Shown in pieces: positions 12,082 through 30,474 of a stretch of 64,000 bases of DNA. The notes beneath the pieces were generated by a model. The model was not told the DNA's origin and did no database searches. It was given only the letters and a program-made list of their open reading frames with translations. The DNA comes from Candidatus Micrarchaeia archaeon (GTDB taxonomy: Archaea > Micrarchaeota > Micrarchaeia > Anstonellales > Anstonellaceae): positions 43,350-107,349 of the forward strand of contig JBAYHU010000002.1 of the NCBI GenBank assembly GCA_041665945.1, given 5' to 3'. A program made the translations under genes and the position numbers. Numbering within the stretch: the first letter of the stretch is position 1; each line of letters starts with the position of its first letter.

Positions 12082-13029
12082 TTATTGCTTGGATTCAAGG
12101 GAGATGTAGCGAAGTTCGGGCGCCTTTACCGGCGTTGCGAGCTTGCGAAGCGCCCTGCGCATGCGGATAAGCCGCTTGCACGGGCCTGCCACGCTTCCCT
12201 TTATCAGTATGAATTCATTCTTGAGGACGCCGTAGTGCTGGAAGCCGCCCTTGGGGTTGATTTCCTCGGGGGTGCCGACCTTCATTATCCTCTTGTTGGG
12301 CTCGGTCCTCTTGTGGTAGCCCATCTGCCCCGCCATCGGGACCGTGTAGTGAACGTAACCAGGGTGCCATGCGCCCAGCGTTCCGGTGTGCCTGCGCTTG
12401 TTGGTCGCCTTCCTGCGCTGCTGCGCTGTTCCGAATCTCTTGACCGGCCCCTGCCAGCCCTTGCCGGTAGTGATTGCAACAATGTCAACGAACTCGCCGG
12501 GCTTGAAAAGCTCGGATGCCTTCACTTCCTTGCCAACAAGCGAATTTGCGAATTCGAATTTCTCCGCCGCGTCCTTGCCGCCGACGGCGATTTCCATCCG
12601 CTCCGGCGTTTTCTTGCCGAATCCGGTCATGCCCGGGCGCGCGTAAGCGAGAACAAAAACATCGGAAACATCAGAAGCAGTGAATTTCTTTGTTGATTTC
12701 TTTGAAACGCCAAGGGGCTTGGTGATTTTCTCATCGGAGGTAATCAGGTCGCCGACGACCTTGCCGTCCTTGTATCCGCGCACGCCGAAAATCATGAGGG
12801 GCGGGCACTCGATGACGGTCGCAGAGGCGAACACCTCGTTGCCCTTTGACGGGGACTCGGTGTCATCCACCCAAGTCACGTGGGTCATGCCTGCCTTGTA
12901 GCCTGCAAACCCGAGAAGCTTCTTTTCGGTTGAAGACGGCCAGTACGATACTGCCGGCATCTGCGAAATCGCACGCTTGCGCGGGCGGAATGCGCGCGAA
13001 CCTTTCTTGTGTCCAGATCTTTTTCCCAT
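12082..13029 (-). CDS. rpl3: 50S ribosomal protein L3 (uL3)
   Basis: uL3, 315 aa. First gene of the cluster. SD GGTGA precedes the ATG. Confidence 0.95.
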   Translation of the reverse strand: MGKRSGHKKGSRAFRPRKRAISQMPAVSYWPSSTEKKLLGFAGYKAGMTHVTWVDDTESPSKGNEVFASATVIECPPLMIFGVRGYKDGKVVGDLITSDEKITKPLGVSKKSTKKFTASDVSDVFVLAYARPGMTGFGKKTPERMEIAVGGKDAAEKFEFANSLVGKEVKASELFKPGEFVDIVAITTGKGWQGPVKRFGTAQQRRKATNKRRHTGTLGAWHPGYVHYTVPMAGQMGYHKRTEPNKRIMKVGTPEEINPKGGFQHYGVLKNEFILIKGSVAGPCKRLIRMRRALRKLATPVKAPELRYISLESKQ

Positions 13030-13165
13030 GAAGTTTCACCGAAATTTTCAGGCATGGAGAATTCCATGCTGATGAAATACCCTGATTGATTGCTGTGAAA
13101 TACCCAACCAGCAATGATTCGCCATGCTTCTTTCCCTCTCGAGGAGGGGTGACGGCGAGTGTCAT

Positions 13166-13183
13166 CTTACAGCATTCTGTAAG
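13166..13183. repeat. Perfect hairpin CTTACAG-CATT-CTGTAAG in the leader region upstream of the L3 operon
   Basis: 7-bp inverted repeat with a 4-nt loop, about 140 nt upstream of the L3 start codon. Candidate r-protein autoregulatory or processing structure. Confidence 0.4.
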
Positions 13184-13210
13184 AAGCGTGGCTTGATATT
13201 GAAACAAGAG

Positions 13211-13218
13211 TTTAAAAA
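13211..13218. promoter_or_regulatory. TATA-like box TTTAAAAA between divergent L3 operon and plus-strand gene 13248
   Basis: AT-rich octamer in a GC-rich spacer. It lies about 30 nt upstream of ATG 13248, consistent with a leaderless transcript. It is near-palindromic and could also serve the L3 operon. Confidence 0.4.
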
Positions 13219-13247
13219 GGTTCCTTCAGGCGGCAAACGCCGGAGAA

Positions 13248-14807
13248 ATGGCTTTTCAGATAACTTGCTACGGGAATAAAAAACCATATGAACAGAAAAA
13301 GACACAAATTACAGGGGGGAGAATGATGGTTGACGCTAAGGAAAACAGGGTCTGGCAGTCCGAACGCGAAAAAAACGGGGAAAACCACGCTTGGAAAGAG
13401 ATTCTCGAGAGGAATATCCGCAAGATTGACTGCGAGTTGGATACTGGCGACCCGGCAACCATGCTCGTAATACAGCTCCGGGGTTCCGGCCTCAGCCTGA
13501 TGGATGTATTCGACTCCGATGTACCCCTGAAATGGTACGCGAGGCAGATGTCGATTAATTCCACTGGATATGCAAGGAGAACCGAACGCTTCCTGCAGGC
13601 GCTTGAAGCCACGCGGATGCAGTACGAGATTGCCGTTGAATTGGGAAAAAACCTGAATGAAAGATCATTCTCGGGCGACGAACAGCATTGGATGGGAGTC
13701 GCGCGCGAGTTCGTCCAGTTCGTGGAGATGGGCAGCGGGCAACCTGCCGAGGTTTTCTTCAACCCCATGTCAAGCGTGTTTTCAATCGACAAGATGGAGA
13801 ATTACTTGCGCGTTTTCCGTTTCCAAAACGACATCAAAGGAATCACCTCGTATGAATTCAAGACAGCGGTTGAAAAAACCGATTCGAGGAAAATAAAGGG
13901 AAAGGCGCAGCAAACATGTGTGGAAATTGAAGGGCAGGCAAAAACACCTGCGCGGGTTGATGTGCAGAGTGCGGATGCCGCGCCCGTAGCGAAAAACTTG
14001 GAGTTCGTGAAAAAAATGGAAGCCGCCGGGCTTGGGGCGGAAGCCCGAAAAATCCTCGCTTACCTCGAGAAAAAAAACACTACGCTTGAGAAAATAAGCG
14101 AAATTGAGCTTTGGAGGCAGTCCGTGTCCCTCTTCGAAAAGCCGCGGACCTCGTATGACAGCCAGACAGGCATAGGGATTGCGAACAAAATCATCGAAGC
14201 TGCCGGCAAGCACGCCGCGGCGGTGAGTGCGAAGGAAATGAAGCTGACTGACTGGGAAGCGGCATTCGCATGCTACATGCACGACAACTACCGCAAACGC
14301 GGCACTGCGCTCGAGGCAATCGCACACATCAAGAAAAACGGCATTTCCGAGGAGAAAATCATCTCGCTTGGTGAAAATGAGATAATCGGGCTCGTGGCAT
14401 CGATGCCGTGCGGCTACGGGTCGTCGCGGATGTATGTTGACATCGACTCCGTAAGAAAGCAGCTTCTGCGGGGAATCGAATACGCCAGCAAGGAGGAGCG
14501 AAGCCGGCTGAAGATGGAGCCCGTTGAATACCCGTGCCTTGAGCACAAGACAACCATCAGGTTCGAGGACATCGGCTCCGAGAGGCATTACCGAAGCAGG
14601 GCAGGAACCGATAACGCCGCAGGCACTGAAACGGCAAGCCAGCAATCATCCGGCGCGGGAAACGCGTATTTCGGCGGTTTGCCCAGCGGAACCACGGACG
14701 TACTGGCGCTTGTGCGGCAGAGGGACGCGGCGATAGAGAAAAGGAAAGCGTGGGAGAAGAGCCACCCTGGCGCGAACAGGAATAACGGGAAGCACCGCCG
14801 CCACTGA
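13248..14807 (+). CDS. Hypothetical protein (519 aa), no recognisable domain
   Basis: Long ORF with native codon bias. Possible alternative start at 13326, preceded by AGGGGGGAGA. C-terminal region is G/S/A-rich and basic. Confidence 0.6.
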   Translation: MAFQITCYGNKKPYEQKKTQITGGRMMVDAKENRVWQSEREKNGENHAWKEILERNIRKIDCELDTGDPATMLVIQLRGSGLSLMDVFDSDVPLKWYARQMSINSTGYARRTERFLQALEATRMQYEIAVELGKNLNERSFSGDEQHWMGVAREFVQFVEMGSGQPAEVFFNPMSSVFSIDKMENYLRVFRFQNDIKGITSYEFKTAVEKTDSRKIKGKAQQTCVEIEGQAKTPARVDVQSADAAPVAKNLEFVKKMEAAGLGAEARKILAYLEKKNTTLEKISEIELWRQSVSLFEKPRTSYDSQTGIGIANKIIEAAGKHAAAVSAKEMKLTDWEAAFACYMHDNYRKRGTALEAIAHIKKNGISEEKIISLGENEIIGLVASMPCGYGSSRMYVDIDSVRKQLLRGIEYASKEERSRLKMEPVEYPCLEHKTTIRFEDIGSERHYRSRAGTDNAAGTETASQQSSGAGNAYFGGLPSGTTDVLALVRQRDAAIEKRKAWEKSHPGANRNNGKHRRH

Positions 14808-14832
14808 ACGCATTGCGGCATTCCCGCCATAC

Positions 14833-14847
14833 TGTTTTTTATTTTCC
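14833..14847 (+). terminator. Oligo-T tract downstream of gene 13248-14807
   Basis: CTGTTTTTTATTTTCC immediately after the stop. Archaeal intrinsic-terminator-like. Confidence 0.4.
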
Positions 14848-14865
14848 TTCAGGCACTAGCGTAGC

Positions 14866-15375
14866 ATGGTGAAGAAACTCCTTGCCGTCTGCGTCTTCCT
14901 TGTTTTCCTGCTCAACTTCTGCAGCGCATACGTGCTCAACGAAAGCCGCGAGGAGATGCTTTCGTATTACCAGACCTACCTCGAGCCCAAGATTCCCAGG
15001 ACGGCAAAGGCGCTCCTTGGCGACGAGAGGATAAACGTGCAAATCGGGGGCAAGACGCTGGGGATTGCGACGAAGCGCGGCGAGCTGTCCGACTTCGAGG
15101 TGCACGCAATCGGGAATCCGACCATCGAGGTGGCGGTAAGCGACGCGGCGGCGGAGGCAATCAAGGGGAAAAAAGTGGGAATAATGCCGTGCCTTGACGA
15201 CGGAAGCATAAAAGTAAGGACGAGCAACTTCTTCACTGCGGTGAAAGTCGAGATGATGAAGAGGATTTACGCCGTTTCAGGCGCGGACGACGCGATTACG
15301 GGCAAGGCGGCGCCATCCCGCAGCATTGAATCATACAATTCCATTTACATACAGCGGGCGAAGATAACGAACTAG
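14866..15375 (+). CDS. Hypothetical secreted/membrane-anchored protein (169 aa)
   Basis: N-terminal hydrophobic signal segment KKLLAVCVFLVFLLNFCSA. Otherwise no known domain. Confidence 0.6.
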   Translation: MVKKLLAVCVFLVFLLNFCSAYVLNESREEMLSYYQTYLEPKIPRTAKALLGDERINVQIGGKTLGIATKRGELSDFEVHAIGNPTIEVAVSDAAAEAIKGKKVGIMPCLDDGSIKVRTSNFFTAVKVEMMKRIYAVSGADDAITGKAAPSRSIESYNSIYIQRAKITN

Positions 15376-15382
15376 GTGCTCC

Positions 15383-16975
15383 ATGGCGTCGGACGCATAC
15401 AGCGCGCTTGACAAGGCGTGGCGCGGAACATGCAGGGTGCTCTTCGGGCAGGAGGCGGGCGGGCTTTCGGATTGCGCCGGATGGCTTTCGGAATACGCCG
15501 AGGAAATCCGCTCGGAAAAATCCTCGATCAGCGGCAAGGCAGTGACATTCACGCAGAACGAATATTCCGGCAGCGCGCGCTTCATGGCGTTCGACGAAAT
15601 CGGATACGGGAAAAAATTCGCGCCCATCCCCCTCGACGACATGAAGGACATCGACAGCCTCGTGACGGCTGCGAAGGAGAGGCTGCAATACGCCGGAAAC
15701 GTGGTGCTGGGGCACTCAAGCGGCGTTCAGAACTCGAGCAATGTGACGGACAGCCATTATGTGCTTGATTCAACGGCGGTCGCAAGCTCCAAATACGTCG
15801 CGTACTCGAAATACATCAAGGAAAGCGAATACTGCTTCGGGGTTTTCGGCGCGGAAAAGGACGCCTATCTGGTAAAATCCATGGGAAGCTCGCTCAAGCG
15901 GTGCTTCGAATGCCACATGGTCAATTACCTGTCCGACTGCTACTACTGCGCGAAAACGCAGAACTGCCGCGAGTGCTTCTTCTGCTTCGGCATGGAAAAC
16001 GGCAGCTATGCAATCGGCAACACGCCGGTTGGCAAGGAGAAATACCTCGCGCTGAAAGCCAAGCTTCTGCCGGAAATCGCGGAAAAGATACGCAAGGACG
16101 GCAGGATATTCTCGCTTTTGAAGCTCATCGAGGAAGCCGGCGCGCACAAGCCGGATTCGAGGCTGAAGTTCGCAAAGGAGAAGGAAGCGGCATTCGATAT
16201 TGCCCCAGTGCAAAAAGGGTTTGACTCCGCCTGCCGGCTTGTCTTCGGGAAGGAAATGGGGGAGATCGGAAAGTACGAAAAATTCCTCTTCAAGCACGTG
16301 CCGAAAAACGTGGTCGTGCCATCCCCGCTGAGCGGCTCGGCGTCGGTGGTGTGCGGCTACAGGAGGCATGTGCTCAACAAATTCGAAATAGCCAGGAGGC
16401 TTCCGACGGAGGACGAGATAAGAAGCGTCGGGAAGCTTGCCGGAATGGTGAAAACGGACGTGGGCGGGATGGAGCTATCCGCGCTCGCGGAGCAGTTCCA
16501 CCCGATTGCATACACCAACCTCGACAAGGTGGCGGGCAAGTGCACGAATTTCAGGAACTGCGCCGTGATAATCGAGTCGCAGGACTGCCTCGAAGGCTCG
16601 GCTTTCGACTATTCGAAAAAATGCGGCTACAACTTCTGGGCGTCGAACGCCGAGTCCGTGTTCGGCTCCTGCGCCGCGTGGTTCTCCACATTCGTGCTCA
16701 AGAATTTCTATTCCAAGAACATGACGCGCTCGCTCGAATGCGACGGCTGCGAATCCTGCACTGACTTGTATTACTCGCACAACTGCGAGAACGTGCGCGA
16801 CTCGATGTTCTGCTTCAACGCGAAAAACCTCACAAACGCAGTGGGCAACGCGCCGCTTCCTGCGGAGCAATACAGGAAAATGAAAGGCGCGATTGTGGCG
16901 CAGCTCGCCGACGAACTGGAAAAGAAGAAGGATTTGAAGTGGGACATTTTCAATATCGGCGCTATCTCTAAGTGA
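15383..16975 (+). CDS. Cys-rich protein with internally duplicated hexad-repeat domain (530 aa)
   Basis: SD AGGTG. Two homologous halves, each with 6-residue periodic strands (x-S-x-Y-x-x turning into C-x-x-C-x-x) and ending ...MFCFNAKNLTNAVGN / ...FFCFGMENGSYAIGN. About 30 Cys. No signal peptide. No family recognised. Confidence 0.7.
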   Translation: MASDAYSALDKAWRGTCRVLFGQEAGGLSDCAGWLSEYAEEIRSEKSSISGKAVTFTQNEYSGSARFMAFDEIGYGKKFAPIPLDDMKDIDSLVTAAKERLQYAGNVVLGHSSGVQNSSNVTDSHYVLDSTAVASSKYVAYSKYIKESEYCFGVFGAEKDAYLVKSMGSSLKRCFECHMVNYLSDCYYCAKTQNCRECFFCFGMENGSYAIGNTPVGKEKYLALKAKLLPEIAEKIRKDGRIFSLLKLIEEAGAHKPDSRLKFAKEKEAAFDIAPVQKGFDSACRLVFGKEMGEIGKYEKFLFKHVPKNVVVPSPLSGSASVVCGYRRHVLNKFEIARRLPTEDEIRSVGKLAGMVKTDVGGMELSALAEQFHPIAYTNLDKVAGKCTNFRNCAVIIESQDCLEGSAFDYSKKCGYNFWASNAESVFGSCAAWFSTFVLKNFYSKNMTRSLECDGCESCTDLYYSHNCENVRDSMFCFNAKNLTNAVGNAPLPAEQYRKMKGAIVAQLADELEKKKDLKWDIFNIGAISK

Positions 16976-17038
16976 TTGAAAAACAAAGAAGGAAAACAGA
17001 AAAAGGAAAAATAAAAAGAGAAAAAACTTCCCTTAGCT
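16976..17038 (-). terminator. Polypyrimidine (T-rich) tract downstream of aEF-2
   Basis: About 60-nt polypurine run on the plus strand (AAACAAAGAAGGAAAACAGAAAAAGGAAAAATAAAAAGAGAAAAAAC), which is oligo-T-rich on the EF-2 coding strand. It fills the convergent spacer between the 15383 gene and fusA. Confidence 0.45.
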
Positions 17039-27116: not shown

Positions 27117-28985
27117 CTAAGCCTTGTCCCTCAAAAGCAGCCTCGGGAAAATTCCCAGAGACTCTATTTCGTCGAGCAGCAGCTTGAACGCGTAGCTCAT
27201 CTCCGCCTGCGAAAGTATTCCGTTCTCGCAAAGCGGGCAGTTGTCGCGGTTCTTCACGAAGTCGTGGTGCCCGATTGAGCCGCACGTCTCGCAGACAAGC
27301 ATCGTCGTCTTGTCCGACTCGTCAAGCAGCCTCTCCTTGATAAGCATCGATGCGCCGTAGCCGATAAGGCAGTCGCGTTCCATTTCTCCGAAACGAAGAC
27401 CTCCTTCCCTTGAGCGCCCTTCGGTCGGCTGGTGGGTGAGCAGCTGCACAGGGCCGCGCGAGCGGACGTGCATCTTGTTTGAAACAAGGTGGTGCAGCTT
27501 CTGGTAGTAGATTACGCCGATGTAAATCTTCGTCTTGATTGCCTGCCCGGTCATGCCGTCGTAGAGCGTTTCCTCGCCGTATTCGGAAAGCCCGTTCTCC
27601 TTCATTATCTTCTTGATGTCCTCCTCCTTGTCGCCTGTGAACGCGGTCGCGTCCACGAGCTTGCCGGAGTAGCACGCAGCCTTGCAGCCCAGCATCTCAA
27701 GCAGGTGCCCGATTGTCATACGGGAGGGGATGGCGTGCGGGTTGATGATAAGGTCGGGGCACACTCCGTCCTTGTTGAACGGCATGTCCTCCTGCGGGCG
27801 GATAAGCCCGATGACTCCCTTCTGCCCGTGGCGGGAGGCGAACTTGTCGCCGACTTCCGGGACCTTGATAGAGCGCACGCGCGCCTTCACAAGCTTTGTT
27901 CCCGAGAGCGAGTCCGTGAGCATGACAGAGTCGACAACGCCGTCCTCTCCTGACTTGAGAACAAGCGAGGATTCGCGCTTCTTTTCCTCAATGACTCCAA
28001 AGACGGTAATCTCTTCGAGGAAACGGGGGGGCGAGGTCTTTCCGACCAGCACGTCCTTTGCCGTCACTTCGCACTCGGGCGAAATCACGCCGTCCTCTCC
28101 AAGGAAGCGGTATGCTGTTTCTTCGCGGTAGCCGCTCGTGGTGGGCGCGGGGATTTCGAACGTGTCCTTCTGCCCGCCGGGGTAGCGGCGTTCCTCGGCT
28201 TCGTGCGACTTGTAGAAGACAGAGCGCCCGAGGCCGCGGTTAATCGCGTTCTTGTTCATGACAACGGCGTCGCCGATGTTGTAGCCGTACGAGGAAGTTA
28301 TCGCGACGATGAAGTTCTGCCCTGCCGCGCGCTCGGCGAAGCCGAGAAGCCCGTAGGGCTGAGTCTGCGCAAGGGGCTGCTGCGGGTAGAACATGATGTG
28401 CGCGCGGGAGTCGTTGCGCATGTTGAAGTTGACTGCGTACGTTCCGAGCGACTGCTTTGCCATGGCGCATGCCATGGTGATACGCGGGGATGAGTTGTAT
28501 TCCGGGTAAGGAAGAACCGATACCGTGACTCCGAAGATGGAGACCGGGTCGATTTCAAGGTGCGTGTGGTCCGGCGTTATTTCGGACTCCTTGAGCGCGA
28601 CATAGGCGGATTCCTCCTCTTCTGCATCGAGATATTCGATGACGCCGAGCTTCACCAATCCCTTCCAGGTGATTTCGTTTCTTTTGAGCTGGTCAAGAAG
28701 GACCGGCGTGAGGCGGGACTGCCCGTTCTCGACGACGACGTAAGGGTGGCGCGCGCGGCCCGAGTCGCTGTTGATGAACAGGTCGTCGGTCTTGCGGTTG
28801 TACTGGAAGTTCACTTCCGAGGAGAGCGAGCCCTGCCTGCGGCGGCTGCGCAATTCGGAGAGAAGGGTGGTGCCGCTTTCGTGGAATCCCACCAGCCTGC
28901 CGTTAAGGTAAATGGAGGTCTTCGGGACAACGCCGCTTGCGGCTGCTGCCCTTCGCTTGGACTTGCTGGATTTTTTGCGCTTCAC
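27117..28985 (-). CDS. rpoB1: DNA-directed RNA polymerase subunit B' (C-terminal half of Rpo2)
   Basis: Rpb2 C-terminal homology with the zinc ribbon CETCG...CPLC. Start at the GTG preceded by GGTGATATTT. Confidence 0.96.
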   Translation of the reverse strand: MKRKKSSKSKRRAAAASGVVPKTSIYLNGRLVGFHESGTTLLSELRSRRRQGSLSSEVNFQYNRKTDDLFINSDSGRARHPYVVVENGQSRLTPVLLDQLKRNEITWKGLVKLGVIEYLDAEEEESAYVALKESEITPDHTHLEIDPVSIFGVTVSVLPYPEYNSSPRITMACAMAKQSLGTYAVNFNMRNDSRAHIMFYPQQPLAQTQPYGLLGFAERAAGQNFIVAITSSYGYNIGDAVVMNKNAINRGLGRSVFYKSHEAEERRYPGGQKDTFEIPAPTTSGYREETAYRFLGEDGVISPECEVTAKDVLVGKTSPPRFLEEITVFGVIEEKKRESSLVLKSGEDGVVDSVMLTDSLSGTKLVKARVRSIKVPEVGDKFASRHGQKGVIGLIRPQEDMPFNKDGVCPDLIINPHAIPSRMTIGHLLEMLGCKAACYSGKLVDATAFTGDKEEDIKKIMKENGLSEYGEETLYDGMTGQAIKTKIYIGVIYYQKLHHLVSNKMHVRSRGPVQLLTHQPTEGRSREGGLRFGEMERDCLIGYGASMLIKERLLDESDKTTMLVCETCGSIGHHDFVKNRDNCPLCENGILSQAEMSYAFKLLLDEIESLGIFPRLLLRDKA

Positions 28986-29013
28986 AAATATCACCAAATG
29001 AACGCGATTGCGC

Positions 29014-30474
29014 TTATCTCTTGACTCCGAGCTTTGTTACCGATTCCTCGATGTTCTTCTCGTCCTCGCCGATTGAGACCTCGCACAAAAGCGAGAGGTT
29101 CTTCACCAGCGCGCACGACGGCCCTTCAGGGGACTCGTTCGGGCAGAGCTTGCCCCAGTGCGTGCCATGCAAGTCACGCGCCTTGAAGTGCGGGTGCTTG
29201 CGGGAGAGTGGCGAGATTATCCTCCTCAAATGGGAAACTGAGGAGAGGAAGCTTGTCCTGTCAAGAAGCTGCGATACTCCGGTCTGTCCGGCAATCCAGT
29301 TGCCTGTTGCCATGGAGTAGCGGATTCTGTCGGAGAGCGCGTCAGGGCGCACGAGCGTCTGCACCGCGAGGTGCCTGCCGCGGGCGTCTGCCCTGCCTGC
29401 CTGGTAAGACACGTCTTTTACGAGGAACTGGAACGCGTAGCGGAACAGGTCCTCCATCAGGTCTCCAGTGAGCTTGATGCGCTTGTTCGCGTAGTGGTCC
29501 TTGTCGTCCTGCGGGATTTCATTGTGCGCGACCTTGATTGCGTGCTCCGCCATCTTGCAAAGGTAGCGCGCTTTCCGCATGCGGTCCTCCGCAGTCGTCC
29601 CGATGTGCGGAAGAAGGTAAGTGTCAAGGAGGATTTCTGCGCGCTTCTCGCGGTAGTCTTCAGCCTGCGAGGGCGCGGCTTTCCTTCCGAGGAAGTCGAT
29701 TGCGGACTTGCGGTCCGTTGTCGTGTCCGCCTCCATGTTGAGAAGCATGTCGTTCTTCACGTTGCGGTCGTCTGCGAAGACTGCGAGTATTTCGTTGTTC
29801 TTCTCAAGCCCGAGCGCGCGGAGAGTCGAAGTGAGCGGGAGGTCTTTTGGAGAAGCGGGGAACACGACTCTCATGAGCCCCTCGTTCGTGCGCTCGACCA
29901 CCGAGCGTGCGCGGAAGCCGAAGCGCGTGGAGAATACTTTCGCGGTGATGAGCGTGTTGTCCTTTTCGCGCGTGCACATGATGCGGTTGGGCGCAAGGTC
30001 TTCAATCGAAGTGAGAACGCGCTCGCTTCCGTTGATGATGAAATATCCGCCCGGGTCGGCAGGGTCCTCGCCCGCTTCAATCAGCTCGTCAGGGCTCATG
30101 TTGTCGAGGTAGCAGAGCTTGGATTTTACCATGACGGGCAGTTCGCCGATGAAAACTTCCGAGAAAGTCGTTTTTTCAACGCCGTTGAAAACAGGGATTA
30201 TCTCGAGGAAAATGGGTGCTGCATAAGTGAGGTTGCGGAGGCGCGCTTCCGAGGGCGTGATGGTGCGCTGCGCGCCGTCAGCCTCGATGATTTTCGGCTT
30301 CTCGAGGCGGATTTGCCCGAAGCGAAGCTCGAATCCCTCGACTGAGGGCTGGATTGTGCCGACGCGGTTGACCACCTGCTGGAGGCCGAACTCGATGAAC
30401 TTGTTGTACGAATCAAGGTGCTGTTTTACCAGGCTGTTGTCCTTGAAATATGCTGTGAGCAGTTCTCCGCGCAT
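29014..30474 (-). CDS. rpoB2: DNA-directed RNA polymerase subunit B'' (N-terminal half of Rpo2)
   Basis: Rpb2 N-terminal homology, 486 aa. Split B is a euryarchaeal/DPANN-type arrangement. Confidence 0.96.
   Translation of the reverse strand: MRGELLTAYFKDNSLVKQHLDSYNKFIEFGLQQVVNRVGTIQPSVEGFELRFGQIRLEKPKIIEADGAQRTITPSEARLRNLTYAAPIFLEIIPVFNGVEKTTFSEVFIGELPVMVKSKLCYLDNMSPDELIEAGEDPADPGGYFIINGSERVLTSIEDLAPNRIMCTREKDNTLITAKVFSTRFGFRARSVVERTNEGLMRVVFPASPKDLPLTSTLRALGLEKNNEILAVFADDRNVKNDMLLNMEADTTTDRKSAIDFLGRKAAPSQAEDYREKRAEILLDTYLLPHIGTTAEDRMRKARYLCKMAEHAIKVAHNEIPQDDKDHYANKRIKLTGDLMEDLFRYAFQFLVKDVSYQAGRADARGRHLAVQTLVRPDALSDRIRYSMATGNWIAGQTGVSQLLDRTSFLSSVSHLRRIISPLSRKHPHFKARDLHGTHWGKLCPNESPEGPSCALVKNLSLLCEVSIGEDEKNIEESVTKLGVKR

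Follow-up and report, generated by a model that had tools for sequence, protein, structure and literature searches.

The archaeal ribosomal super-operon (rpoB-rpoA-L30e-NusA-S12-S7-EF-2-EF-1alpha-S10) is the described arrangement closest to the locus considered here, which lies in a stretch of 64,000 nucleotides from a Candidatus Micrarchaeia archaeon (GenBank assembly GCA_041665945.1, contig JBAYHU010000002.1, positions 43,350 to 107,349 of the forward strand; hereafter, the window). Like the super-operon, the window has rpoB/A', A'', L7Ae-type, NusA-KH, S12, S7, and EF-2 genes on one strand, followed by L3 to L5; however, EF-1alpha and S10 are missing, an opposite-strand pilin-like Cys-rich gene parts S7 from EF-2, and three opposite-strand open reading frames (ORF1, ORF2, and ORF3), the subject of this report, part EF-2 from L3. 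Read along the minus strand, the full order is rpoB/rpoA (A', A'')-L7Ae-type-NusA-KH-S12-S7-[Cys-rich plus-strand gene]-EF-2-[ORF3, ORF2, and ORF1 on the plus strand]-L3-L4-L23-L2-S19-L22-S3-L29-SUI1-p29-S17-L14-L24-S4e-L5. Two of the three ORFs, ORF2 and ORF3, form a conserved pair: ORF2 is predicted to be an exported protein with a lipid-carrier fold, and ORF3 belongs to a large protein family without known relatives that has so far been seen only in Micrarchaeota.

Micrarchaeota, members of the DPANN archaea, live as symbionts, are ultra-small, and have ~1-Mb genomes; their host attachment and lipid acquisition are largely unknown. Unannotated lineage-specific families are common in DPANN, and most of those of Micrarchaeota have no predicted function (PMC8204110). 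The block described here looks like unexplored symbiont biology rather than a translation module. Being large and amplified, with no Pfam or NCBIfam model, no structural neighbor, and a recurrent context of ATPases and regulators, the ORF3 family offers a concrete handle on phylum-specific biology, and ORF2, putatively exported and with a predicted SCP2 fold, could plausibly serve to capture lipids where symbiont and host meet.

The gene block between rpl3 and EF-2

ORF1 (positions 13326-14807, with an alternative start at 13248), ORF2 (14866-15375), and ORF3 (15383-16975, starting 7 nt past the ORF2 stop) are all on the plus strand and encode 493 (519 from 13248), 169, and 530 residues, respectively. 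They are flanked on the left by rpl3 (12082-13029, minus strand), the first gene of the L3-L4-L23-L2-S19-L22-S3-L29 operon, and on the right by EF-2 (aEF-2/fusA, 17039-19231, minus strand); both flanking genes are in the ORF list, and the corresponding public gene calls match Pfam Ribosomal_L3 in the first case and GTP_EFTU, EFG_III, EFG_IV, and EFG_C in the second. Public gene calls on the source contig (WCT52_01600/05/10) agree with the three ORFs, except that ORF1 is called with 493/494 aa. ORF3 is identical to NCBI WCT52_01610 and lies on an ENA contig of 239 kb. In Pfam, NCBIfam, and PADLOC, none of the three proteins has a match (for PADLOC, at E <= 0.1).

The ORF2-ORF3 pair is found on eight independent metagenomic contigs, and rpl3 adjoins it in seven of them. 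In L081/L082, L083, L084, and the ERZ1426851 contig, rpl3 diverges from an ORF1-like gene that is followed by ORF2 and ORF3 (with additional genes on either side of the trio in ERZ1426851); EF-2 lies convergently after ORF3 where the contig extends that far (L081/L082). In L085 and L086, ORF1 is absent and ORF2 and ORF3 directly follow the divergent rpl3, and the short contig L004 carries ORF2 and ORF3 alone. As the pair persists where ORF1 is absent, ORF2-ORF3 constitutes the conserved unit and ORF1 an accessory. The position of the block is kept across genomes whose L3 proteins are 80-97% identical. The spacing of 2-7 nt between ORF2 and ORF3 among these relatives suggests a bicistronic operon, divergent from rpl3. 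In hidden Markov model searches of all ORFs of 81 related loci, ORF1 and ORF2 are confined to this narrow clade.

The ratio of nonsynonymous to synonymous substitution rates (dN/dS), measured against L083, is 0.44 for ORF1, 0.275 for ORF2, and 0.127 for ORF3, compared with 0.123 for L4 and 0.042 for L3, at dS of 0.44-0.63 throughout; purifying selection on ORF3 is as strong as that on L4. Since homologs are known for all three and the dN/dS values are 0.44, 0.28, and 0.13 after rounding, the ORFs are real genes and not chance reading frames. ORF1-3 have a GC content at third codon positions (GC3) of 0.67-0.78, which falls inside the span of 0.64-0.81 observed for 16 further genes in the window. 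Native composition, purifying selection, and the same rpl3-adjoining position on seven independent contigs argue for vertical inheritance and not for a recent import: the block is a native piece of the Micrarchaeia genome in two layers, ORF2-ORF3 and ORF1.

The original prediction, made from the sequence alone, had placed three co-oriented genes encoding proteins of 519, 169, and 530 aa here, described the second product as a signal-peptide protein and the third as a Cys-rich repeat protein, and regarded the genes as native in codon use, not recently imported, and of unknown function. These points are borne out, with the qualification that the 519-aa ORF exists but probably starts at 13326; no homolog of any of the three has an annotated function, and the suggested comparison with related genomes finds the block beside rpl3 on seven related contigs. 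The assumption of a single three-gene module does not survive: where ORF1 is not absent altogether (L085/L086), its counterparts vary from 493 to 663 aa, and only ORF2-ORF3 behaves as a conserved pair.

Predicted features of ORF2 and ORF3 and the lipid-handling reading

The SCP2 fold, an alpha/beta arrangement in which helices pack on a five-stranded sheet to leave a hydrophobic tunnel, is known from cytosolic or peroxisomal proteins, among them small stand-alone ones, and from C-terminal domains of alkylsulfatases; ligands of the superfamily are lipids, sterols, acyl-CoA, or isoprenoids. The predicted AlphaFold2 (AF2) model of ORF2, built with 12 homologs, has a predicted local distance difference test score (pLDDT) of 79; an SCP2-like lipid-carrier fold spans residues ~28-145, and the C-terminal tail beyond it is modeled with low confidence. 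All 30 Foldseek matches of the model in the PDB at E <= 1e-3 are SCP2, UbiJ-SCP2, or alkylsulfatase SCP2 domains. The best one is UbiJ-SCP2 (PDB chain 6h6o_B, E = 3.4e-5, template modeling (TM) score to target 0.60), and the others include Thermus TT1886, human SCP2, Archaeoglobus AF1534, and the C-terminal SCP2 domains of alkylsulfatases. With 6h6o, human SCP2, AF1534 (3bn8), and the C-terminal domains of SdsA1/Pisa1, residues ~28-145 superpose at TM 0.5-0.6. ORF2 is thereby predicted to carry an SCP2-type fold for hydrophobic ligands (lipid or isoprenoid) and, judging from the model, adds one more protein to those already described with this fold. It resembles the stand-alone SCP2 proteins in its small single-domain size; unlike them, it has no detectable sequence similarity to the family, possesses a conserved additional C-terminal tail (YNSIYIQRA.I), and is predicted to be extracytoplasmic through its N-terminal signal or anchor. 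Descriptions of DPANN SCP2 proteins were not found in the literature.

Residues 1-21 of ORF2 (nt 14866-14928) constitute an n-h-c signal sequence, MVKK-LLAVCVFLVFLLNF-CSA|Y, with a 14-residue hydrophobic core. As in Sec-type signals, there is a positive n-region, an h-region, and small residues at -3/-1; the Kyte-Doolittle 19-residue maximum reaches 2.48 at residue 5, the model has a helix at residues 2-18, and A21 is nearly invariant among the homologs (13 besides the self-match, 45-76% identical). From this N-terminal Sec-type signal peptide or anchor, ORF2 is predicted to lie outside the cytoplasm, either exported or tethered to the membrane.

ORF3 is built of two homologous halves: residues 1-265 (nt 15383-16177) and 266-530 (nt 16178-16972) align with BLASTP E = 3e-21 and 24% identity over 243 residues. 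Each half contains 19 hexads. The first run (residues 101-214, 15683-16024) follows the pattern x-x-[V/I/C]-x-x-[S] and ends in the motif RCFE..SDCYY..NC..CxFCFG..N....IGN, and in the second (residues 376-489, 16508-16849), Cys residues are enriched at positions 3 and 6; the whole protein has 22 Cys (4.2%). The most conserved motif of the family, E.D....C..YF.HNCEN..DSMFCFN.KN...A[IV]GN, is located in this second run, in the C half. Family-wide, position 3 of the N-half hexads is hydrophobic in 74% and position 6 is Ser, Cys, Thr, or Ala in 58% of cases, with a Fourier peak at period 6.0 (13.9 times the mean power). Periodicity of the C-half repeats is weaker (periods 3 and ~12), with Cys at hexad positions 3 and 6, and control regions give helical periods of 3.5-3.7. 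Left-handed beta-helix proteins are marked by many imperfect tandem hexapeptides of the type [LIV]-[GAED]-x2-[STAV]-x, a repeat type with which the ORF3 hexads are consistent.

Hexapep beta-helix proteins (PF00132; LpxA/LpxD/GlmU-type) share with ORF3 the six-residue period, repeated about 19 times per ORF3 half, the combination of an aliphatic or Cys position with a small Ser/Cys/Ala position, and the location of the repeats between an alpha/beta domain and a helix. ORF3 differs from these homotrimeric proteins in its pseudo-dimeric duplication, its richness in Cys and Asn, and its lack of a Pfam match, a modeled beta-helix, or a PDB neighbor. In the AF2 model (predicted TM score, pTM, 0.84), each module comprises an alpha/beta domain with pLDDT of 85-90, a repeat region with pLDDT of about 60 nearly without regular secondary structure, and a long helix. 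Foldseek returned no PDB match better than E = 4.3 and none in BFVD, so that of the structural comparisons proposed in the original prediction, the one for ORF2 led to the SCP2 fold and the one for ORF3 to no match in either collection. Judging from the periodicity, the hexads probably form a beta-solenoid. None of 65 full-length family members has a hydrophobic segment, which indicates that the family is soluble, and no secretion signal was found in them; ORF3 is predicted to be a soluble cytoplasmic pseudo-dimer. In 15 loci (e.g., L063 and L078), N-type and C-type half genes of ~255 aa alternate; the family unit is therefore a dimer or pseudo-dimer of two ~265-aa modules.

Cys content ranges from 0.6 to 6.9% across the family; with members as low as 0.6%, Cys cannot count as obligatory or as a family hallmark. 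An obligatory metal-cluster protein was considered for ORF3 and rejected on the same ground and because Cys positions differ between the halves. Cys-ladder solenoids (insect antifreeze-type IPR016133 and phage CxxC proteins) have, as the ORF3 family does, Cys every 3, 6, or 12 residues; however, the phage proteins are tiny and almost pure CxxC, whereas the ORF3 family has an alpha/beta domain and a helix. The phage profile phrog_15341 (of unknown function) is matched by 49 of 73 family members over the Cys-rich hexads of the C half, with a best E of 2.8e-9, the matches covering only positions ~36-143 of 276 and their scores possibly inflated by Cys-repeat composition; the same caution applies to the window ORF3, which matches 36 of the 276 positions at E = 0.0038. 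In a tblastn search with one family member, P0261, the sole matches in the phage collection were weak ones to 124-aa proteins: gp69 of Vibrio phage 1.238.B (L087 2845-3219) and gp032 of Campylobacter phage CP220 (L088 1941-2312). C-x-x-C-x-x repeats account for nearly the whole length of both; one carries the annotation 'insect antifreeze protein', and both probably share their repeat class with phrog_15341. We read the likeness between ORF3 and these phage proteins as one of repeat kind (the Cys-ladder solenoid), which may reflect repeat type and composition rather than common descent.

We prefer to see ORF2-ORF3 as a lipid-handling pair, a reading that is plausible as a whole, though short of probable. 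The pair would serve the envelope or host interface of a symbiont that depends on lipids: outside the cell, hydrophobic molecules would be bound and carried by ORF2, and inside it, ORF3 would provide a non-enzymatic solenoid scaffold or adaptor. DPANN archaea generally do not have complete lipid synthesis, and it is from this together with the SCP2 fold of ORF2 that a role in lipid handling can be inferred. The anatomy of the two proteins is much more secure than this functional part, which is put forward tentatively.

Several observations count against such a role. The SCP2 assignment comes from a predicted model alone (pLDDT 79, TM 0.55-0.6): Pfam SCP2 (PF02036), Alkyl_sulf_C, and SCP2_2 match none of the 12 ORF2 homologs (0/12) at E <= 10, the other Pfam matches of these homologs are scattered noise, and the ORF2 family profile retrieves only noise from PDB sequences. 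Similarly, the solenoid idea for ORF3 rests on sequence periodicity alone; AF2 built no beta-helix from the repeats (pLDDT ~60, no strands), and Pfam Hexapep (PF00132/PF14602) is unmatched in 73 family members at E <= 5. A direct partnership is awkward, as ORF2 is predicted outside and ORF3 inside the cell. Close relatives of ORF3 outside the clade (L007 and L009-L012, 51-58% identity), moreover, occur without ORF2 in another conserved neighborhood, as a single gene between a 366-aa and a ~300-aa gene, so ORF3 does not need ORF2. The original prediction had named scattered, unlinked homologs as an argument against a module; these relatives are a partial case of it, and within the clade the pair is still linked.

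The ORF3 family and competing explanations

At least 205 ORF3 homologs were collected by a word-seeded search, and a profile search of 1.84 billion representatives yielded, as a lower bound, 1,584 clusters (50% identity) at E <= 1e-3, 345 of them at E <= 1e-30. Scanning one genome per GTDB species gave 314 ORF3-family stretches; among the best 80, all titled records are Micrarchaeota, Anstonellaceae, or unclassified archaeal metagenome-assembled genomes (MAGs). The family was not found in IMG/VR viral contigs, and ORF3 itself had no tblastn match in a collection of 50,697 phage records. A Pfam scan of 73 homologs at permissive E-values produced scattered noise only, as did the family and N-terminal-domain profiles against PDB sequences; NCBIfam and PADLOC do not match the family, and no description of it was found in the literature. 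The ORF3 family has no known relative by sequence or predicted structure. It is not lineage-specific, as had been proposed for the block, and instead belongs to the whole phylum, in multiple copies that usually form tandem arrays elsewhere in the genome.

In about 50 genomes surveyed, the family has 5-18 copies per genome, and one MAG has at least ~17 over four loci. Two or more units are present in 36 of 81 loci and four or more in 12; the largest locus has 10 units by ORF clustering, and tblastn suggests ~11 copies in L060. ORF3 of the window falls into the best-conserved branch (50-87% identity). De novo clustering of neighboring ORFs reveals recurrent partners of the arrays. A ~670-aa P-loop ATPase gene mostly comes next to the end of the array, as a rule in convergent orientation and no more than 25 bp away (24 loci, all in different genomes). 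A ~235-aa HTH_10 regulator lies just upstream, mostly on the same strand (17 loci); a ~330-aa double Lrp/AsnC regulator (Pfam HTH_AsnC-type/HTH_24) accompanies 16 loci, and a pyridoxal phosphate enzyme (Pfam PALP) seven loci of one subclade. A conserved Micrarchaeota locus reads HTH_10, then 2-8 ORF3-family genes (full-length or half pairs), a convergent HerA/FtsK/TrwB-like ATPase, and a divergent PALP gene, whose product has a long C-terminal extension (L073 7633-15133, L068 7229-15324, L063 2521-11682, L048 7651-18287, and L037 4249-11866). None of these partners (ATPase, HTH_10, double Lrp, and PALP) is present in the window.

Known HerA/FtsK/VirD4(TrwB)-type ATPases resemble the array neighbor in its matches to DUF87 (E = 4.5e-12), TrwB_AAD_bind (1e-10), FtsK_SpoIIIE, and PADLOC HerA/mad8, mostly over the P-loop region only. 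It differs from them in having neither a transmembrane N-terminus (judged by eye) nor NurA, Sir2, or another known HerA partner nearby, and only its position connects it with the array proteins. An unlikely, if serious, alternative to the lipid-handling pair is that the ORF3 family comprises diversified cargo or effectors, or parts of a defense or host-interaction system, run by this ATPase, the window copy being a detached single member. Such a role would fit the arrays of 2-10 diverged paralogs that occupy a large share of ~1-Mb genomes, their position next to the DUF87/TrwB_AAD_bind/FtsK-type ATPase in 24 genomes with HTH_10 upstream, and the matches of the ATPase to the PADLOC HerA and mad8 models. 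It fits poorly with the window, which has no array ATPase or HTH_10, with the absence of family matches in PADLOC and IMG/VR viral contigs, with the lack of a secretion signal, with ATPase matches largely restricted to the P-loop, and with the slow evolution of the window ortholog (dN/dS 0.13), unlike that of typical arms-race genes. An analogy to double-jelly-roll capsid proteins and their packaging ATPase was likewise examined and rejected: the ORF3 model is not all-beta, there are up to 10 paralogs, and viral contigs do not contain the family.

A broader form of the lipid-handling reading is improbable in its entirety. The ORF3 family would be an undescribed class of cytoplasmic, pseudo-dimeric hexad/Cys-ladder solenoids that, together with the HerA/FtsK-like ATPase and HTH_10, form a Micrarchaeota-specific host-interaction system (e.g., for the export or loading of diversified adaptors, or for DNA or lipid transfer); in the clade of the window, a core paralog would have become coupled to an exported SCP2-type carrier that scavenges host membrane lipids.

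Instead of the non-enzymatic scaffold assumed for the lipid-handling pair, ORF3 might be a divergent hexapeptide-repeat (left-handed beta-helix) enzyme of the acyltransferase type, acting on a hydrophobic substrate presented by ORF2. This is more doubtful still. The clear hexad periodicity with a hydrophobic position 3 and a small position 6, the near-invariant polar residues (including E452, H466, and N489), and the tight coupling of the gene to one of SCP2 fold would all suit an enzyme of this kind, as would the architecture of each half, with an alpha/beta domain, repeats, and a C-terminal helix, which we take to recall LpxD-type enzymes. However, Hexapep is matched by 0 of 73 members and Foldseek finds neither a beta-helix nor any other PDB match; left-handed beta-helix enzymes are trimers with active sites between subunits, not pseudo-dimers, and ORF2, as the presenting partner, is predicted to be extracytoplasmic.

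Very unlikely, in turn, is that ORF1-3 assist translation or associate with the ribosome as accessory factors under joint regulation with the ribosomal super-operon. The block does lie between the L3 operon and EF-2, it has a highly conserved divergent control region in common with rpl3, and constraint on ORF3 equals that on L4. Furthermore, in Anstonella stagnisolia and a RIFCSP MAG, an ORF3-family paralog (36% identity) is located between S7 and EF-2, directly upstream of EF-2 and co-oriented with S12-S7-EF-2. With 5-18 copies per genome and ~50 genomes, however, one or two such adjacencies are expected by chance, and most family members are far from translation genes; the block genes are opposite in strand to all translation genes, ORF2 is predicted to be exported, and Pfam and NCBIfam reveal no RNA-binding or GTPase domain. 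Nor is there evidence that the block took the place of tuf/S10, genes of the type that the original prediction had expected at this site. EF-1alpha and S10 were not found in the 64-kb window, where EF-2 contributes the sole EF-Tu-type GTPase motif and is followed downstream by ORF3-ORF1 on the opposite strand and then rpl3; in Anstonella (L053), the only other Micrarchaeota lineage with a readable EF-2 neighborhood, a nitrilase-like ORF (by eye) and likewise not EF-1alpha/S10 comes after EF-2. The flanks of EF-2 thus hold different cargo from lineage to lineage in Micrarchaeota; the gap in the super-operon is a variable cargo site and not evidence for a novel translation factor, and the block is not a translation module.

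That the block is a recent mobile or foreign insert, or a set of spurious ORFs in a spacer, is scarcely credible and already largely refuted: the variable EF-2 flanks and the near lack of ORF1 homologs might be cited for it, but the block lacks the marks of a genomic island examined here (GC3 and codon use are native, no tRNA gene is present in the window, the public gene calls next to the block include no integrase, and viral and phage collections give no match), its position is kept in seven related contigs and across genomes with L3 80-97% identical, and each of the three genes has a dN/dS far under 1.

Control region, terminator, and neighboring genes

The block is bounded by two noncoding regions that the original prediction had noted as its limits, a TATA box/hairpin region and a 60-nt polypurine tract. 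Both elements exist; most likely, they are the promoter and leader of the L3 operon and the terminator of EF-2, respectively. The divergent control region (13030-13247, minus strand) comprises a TATA-like element, four hairpins, and the rpl3 Shine-Dalgarno sequence GGTGA. The element is TTTAAAAA at 13211-13218, replaced by a palindromic TTTATAAA in three further relatives. A 44-nt block around it (13190-13233) is 100% identical in three genomes, which is not neutral, as dS of the flanking genes is 0.44-0.63. Inverted repeats are located at 13084-13192, and four conserved hairpins (13052-13070, 13084-13120, 13116-13165, and 13165-13184) lie between the TATA-like block and the rpl3 Shine-Dalgarno sequence. 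The spacer was aligned in sets of three and six genomes, with equivalents in L081, L083, L084, L085, and L086; RNAalifold detects compensatory changes in the hairpins upstream of rpl3, and the RNA of the minus strand is favored because reading the plus strand instead would turn several G.U pairs into A.C. From these patterns, 13030-13247 probably combines the promoter of the L3 operon with its structured 5' leader of ~170 nt, and the leader is a candidate archaeal ribosomal-protein autoregulatory element of L3-L4-L23-L2. Rfam (gathering threshold and E <= 10) gave no credible match in the rpl3-ORF1 spacer or elsewhere in the window, and JGI metagenome contigs, scanned for exact 35-mers from the conserved block of the spacer, yielded 0 matches. 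Two other candidates for the region were rejected: a C/D-box small RNA (UGAUGA and CUGA are present, but the guide is only 7 nt long and L081 shows no conservation here) and a small ORF within the leader (the lengths of the indels are not divisible by three). In L085 and L086, ORF2 has its own TTTTTATT ~30 nt upstream of its ATG.

Archaeal transcription termination occurs at oligo-T tracts. In the convergent spacer (16976-17038, minus strand), a purine tract on the plus strand (16976-17030) corresponds on the minus strand to an oligo-T/pyrimidine run directly after the EF-2 stop; an inverted repeat was not found in the spacer. On this general knowledge of archaeal termination, the tract is probably the transcription terminator of EF-2.

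ORF1 encodes a soluble, basic protein (pI 8.5) with the C-terminus HRRH and has three database homologs including itself; Pfam, NCBIfam, PADLOC, and PHROG do not match it. Its start is probably at 13326 and not at 13248, because conservation begins at M27 ('MVDA', three homologs aligned) and a Shine-Dalgarno sequence, GGGGGGAG, lies just 5' of this residue; AATAAAAAA at 13286-13294 also precedes the M27 start. Relatives have indel-rich proteins of 493-663 aa in the same position, one copy being split. By assembly, the homolog is one 647-aa ORF in L082 (922-2865) and two overlapping ORFs of 484 and 177 aa in L081 (7950-9892), and both assemblies encode an identical ORF2 protein; the difference is either an assembly frameshift or a pseudogenizing variant. 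ORF1 is a younger and fast-evolving accessory gene; one subclade has gained it at a site between ORF2 and the shared control region.

The spacer between S7 and EF-2 is a variable cargo site as well. In A. stagnisolia (L053 6130-13935), it contains a TPR protein, an HTH_10 regulator, and the ORF3-family gene; in the RIFCSP MAG (L058 4921-14598), a 431-aa gene, a double Lrp regulator, the ORF3-family gene, and a possible nucleotidyltransferase/HEPN-type pair (by eye only). In the window, it is occupied by the plus-strand ORF 19317-20999 (probable start 19434), whose 521-aa product has 13.8% Cys, a pI of 4.25, and many CC.G/C..C repeats. Pfam, NCBIfam, PADLOC, and PHROG do not match this protein; its N-terminus, AQGSSEFLLVLGMVLIISV, resembles a class III signal of the type IV pilin kind, and the L081 homolog begins RAQASAEFLIVTGAILIV. 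Upstream of rpoA' (24401-27103), the minus-strand region 27117-30474 contains ORFs 29014-30474 (486 aa) and 27117-28997 (626 aa, TTG start), the latter with a nested ORF from the first ATG (27117-28475); judged by eye only, they represent a putative split RNA polymerase B subunit.

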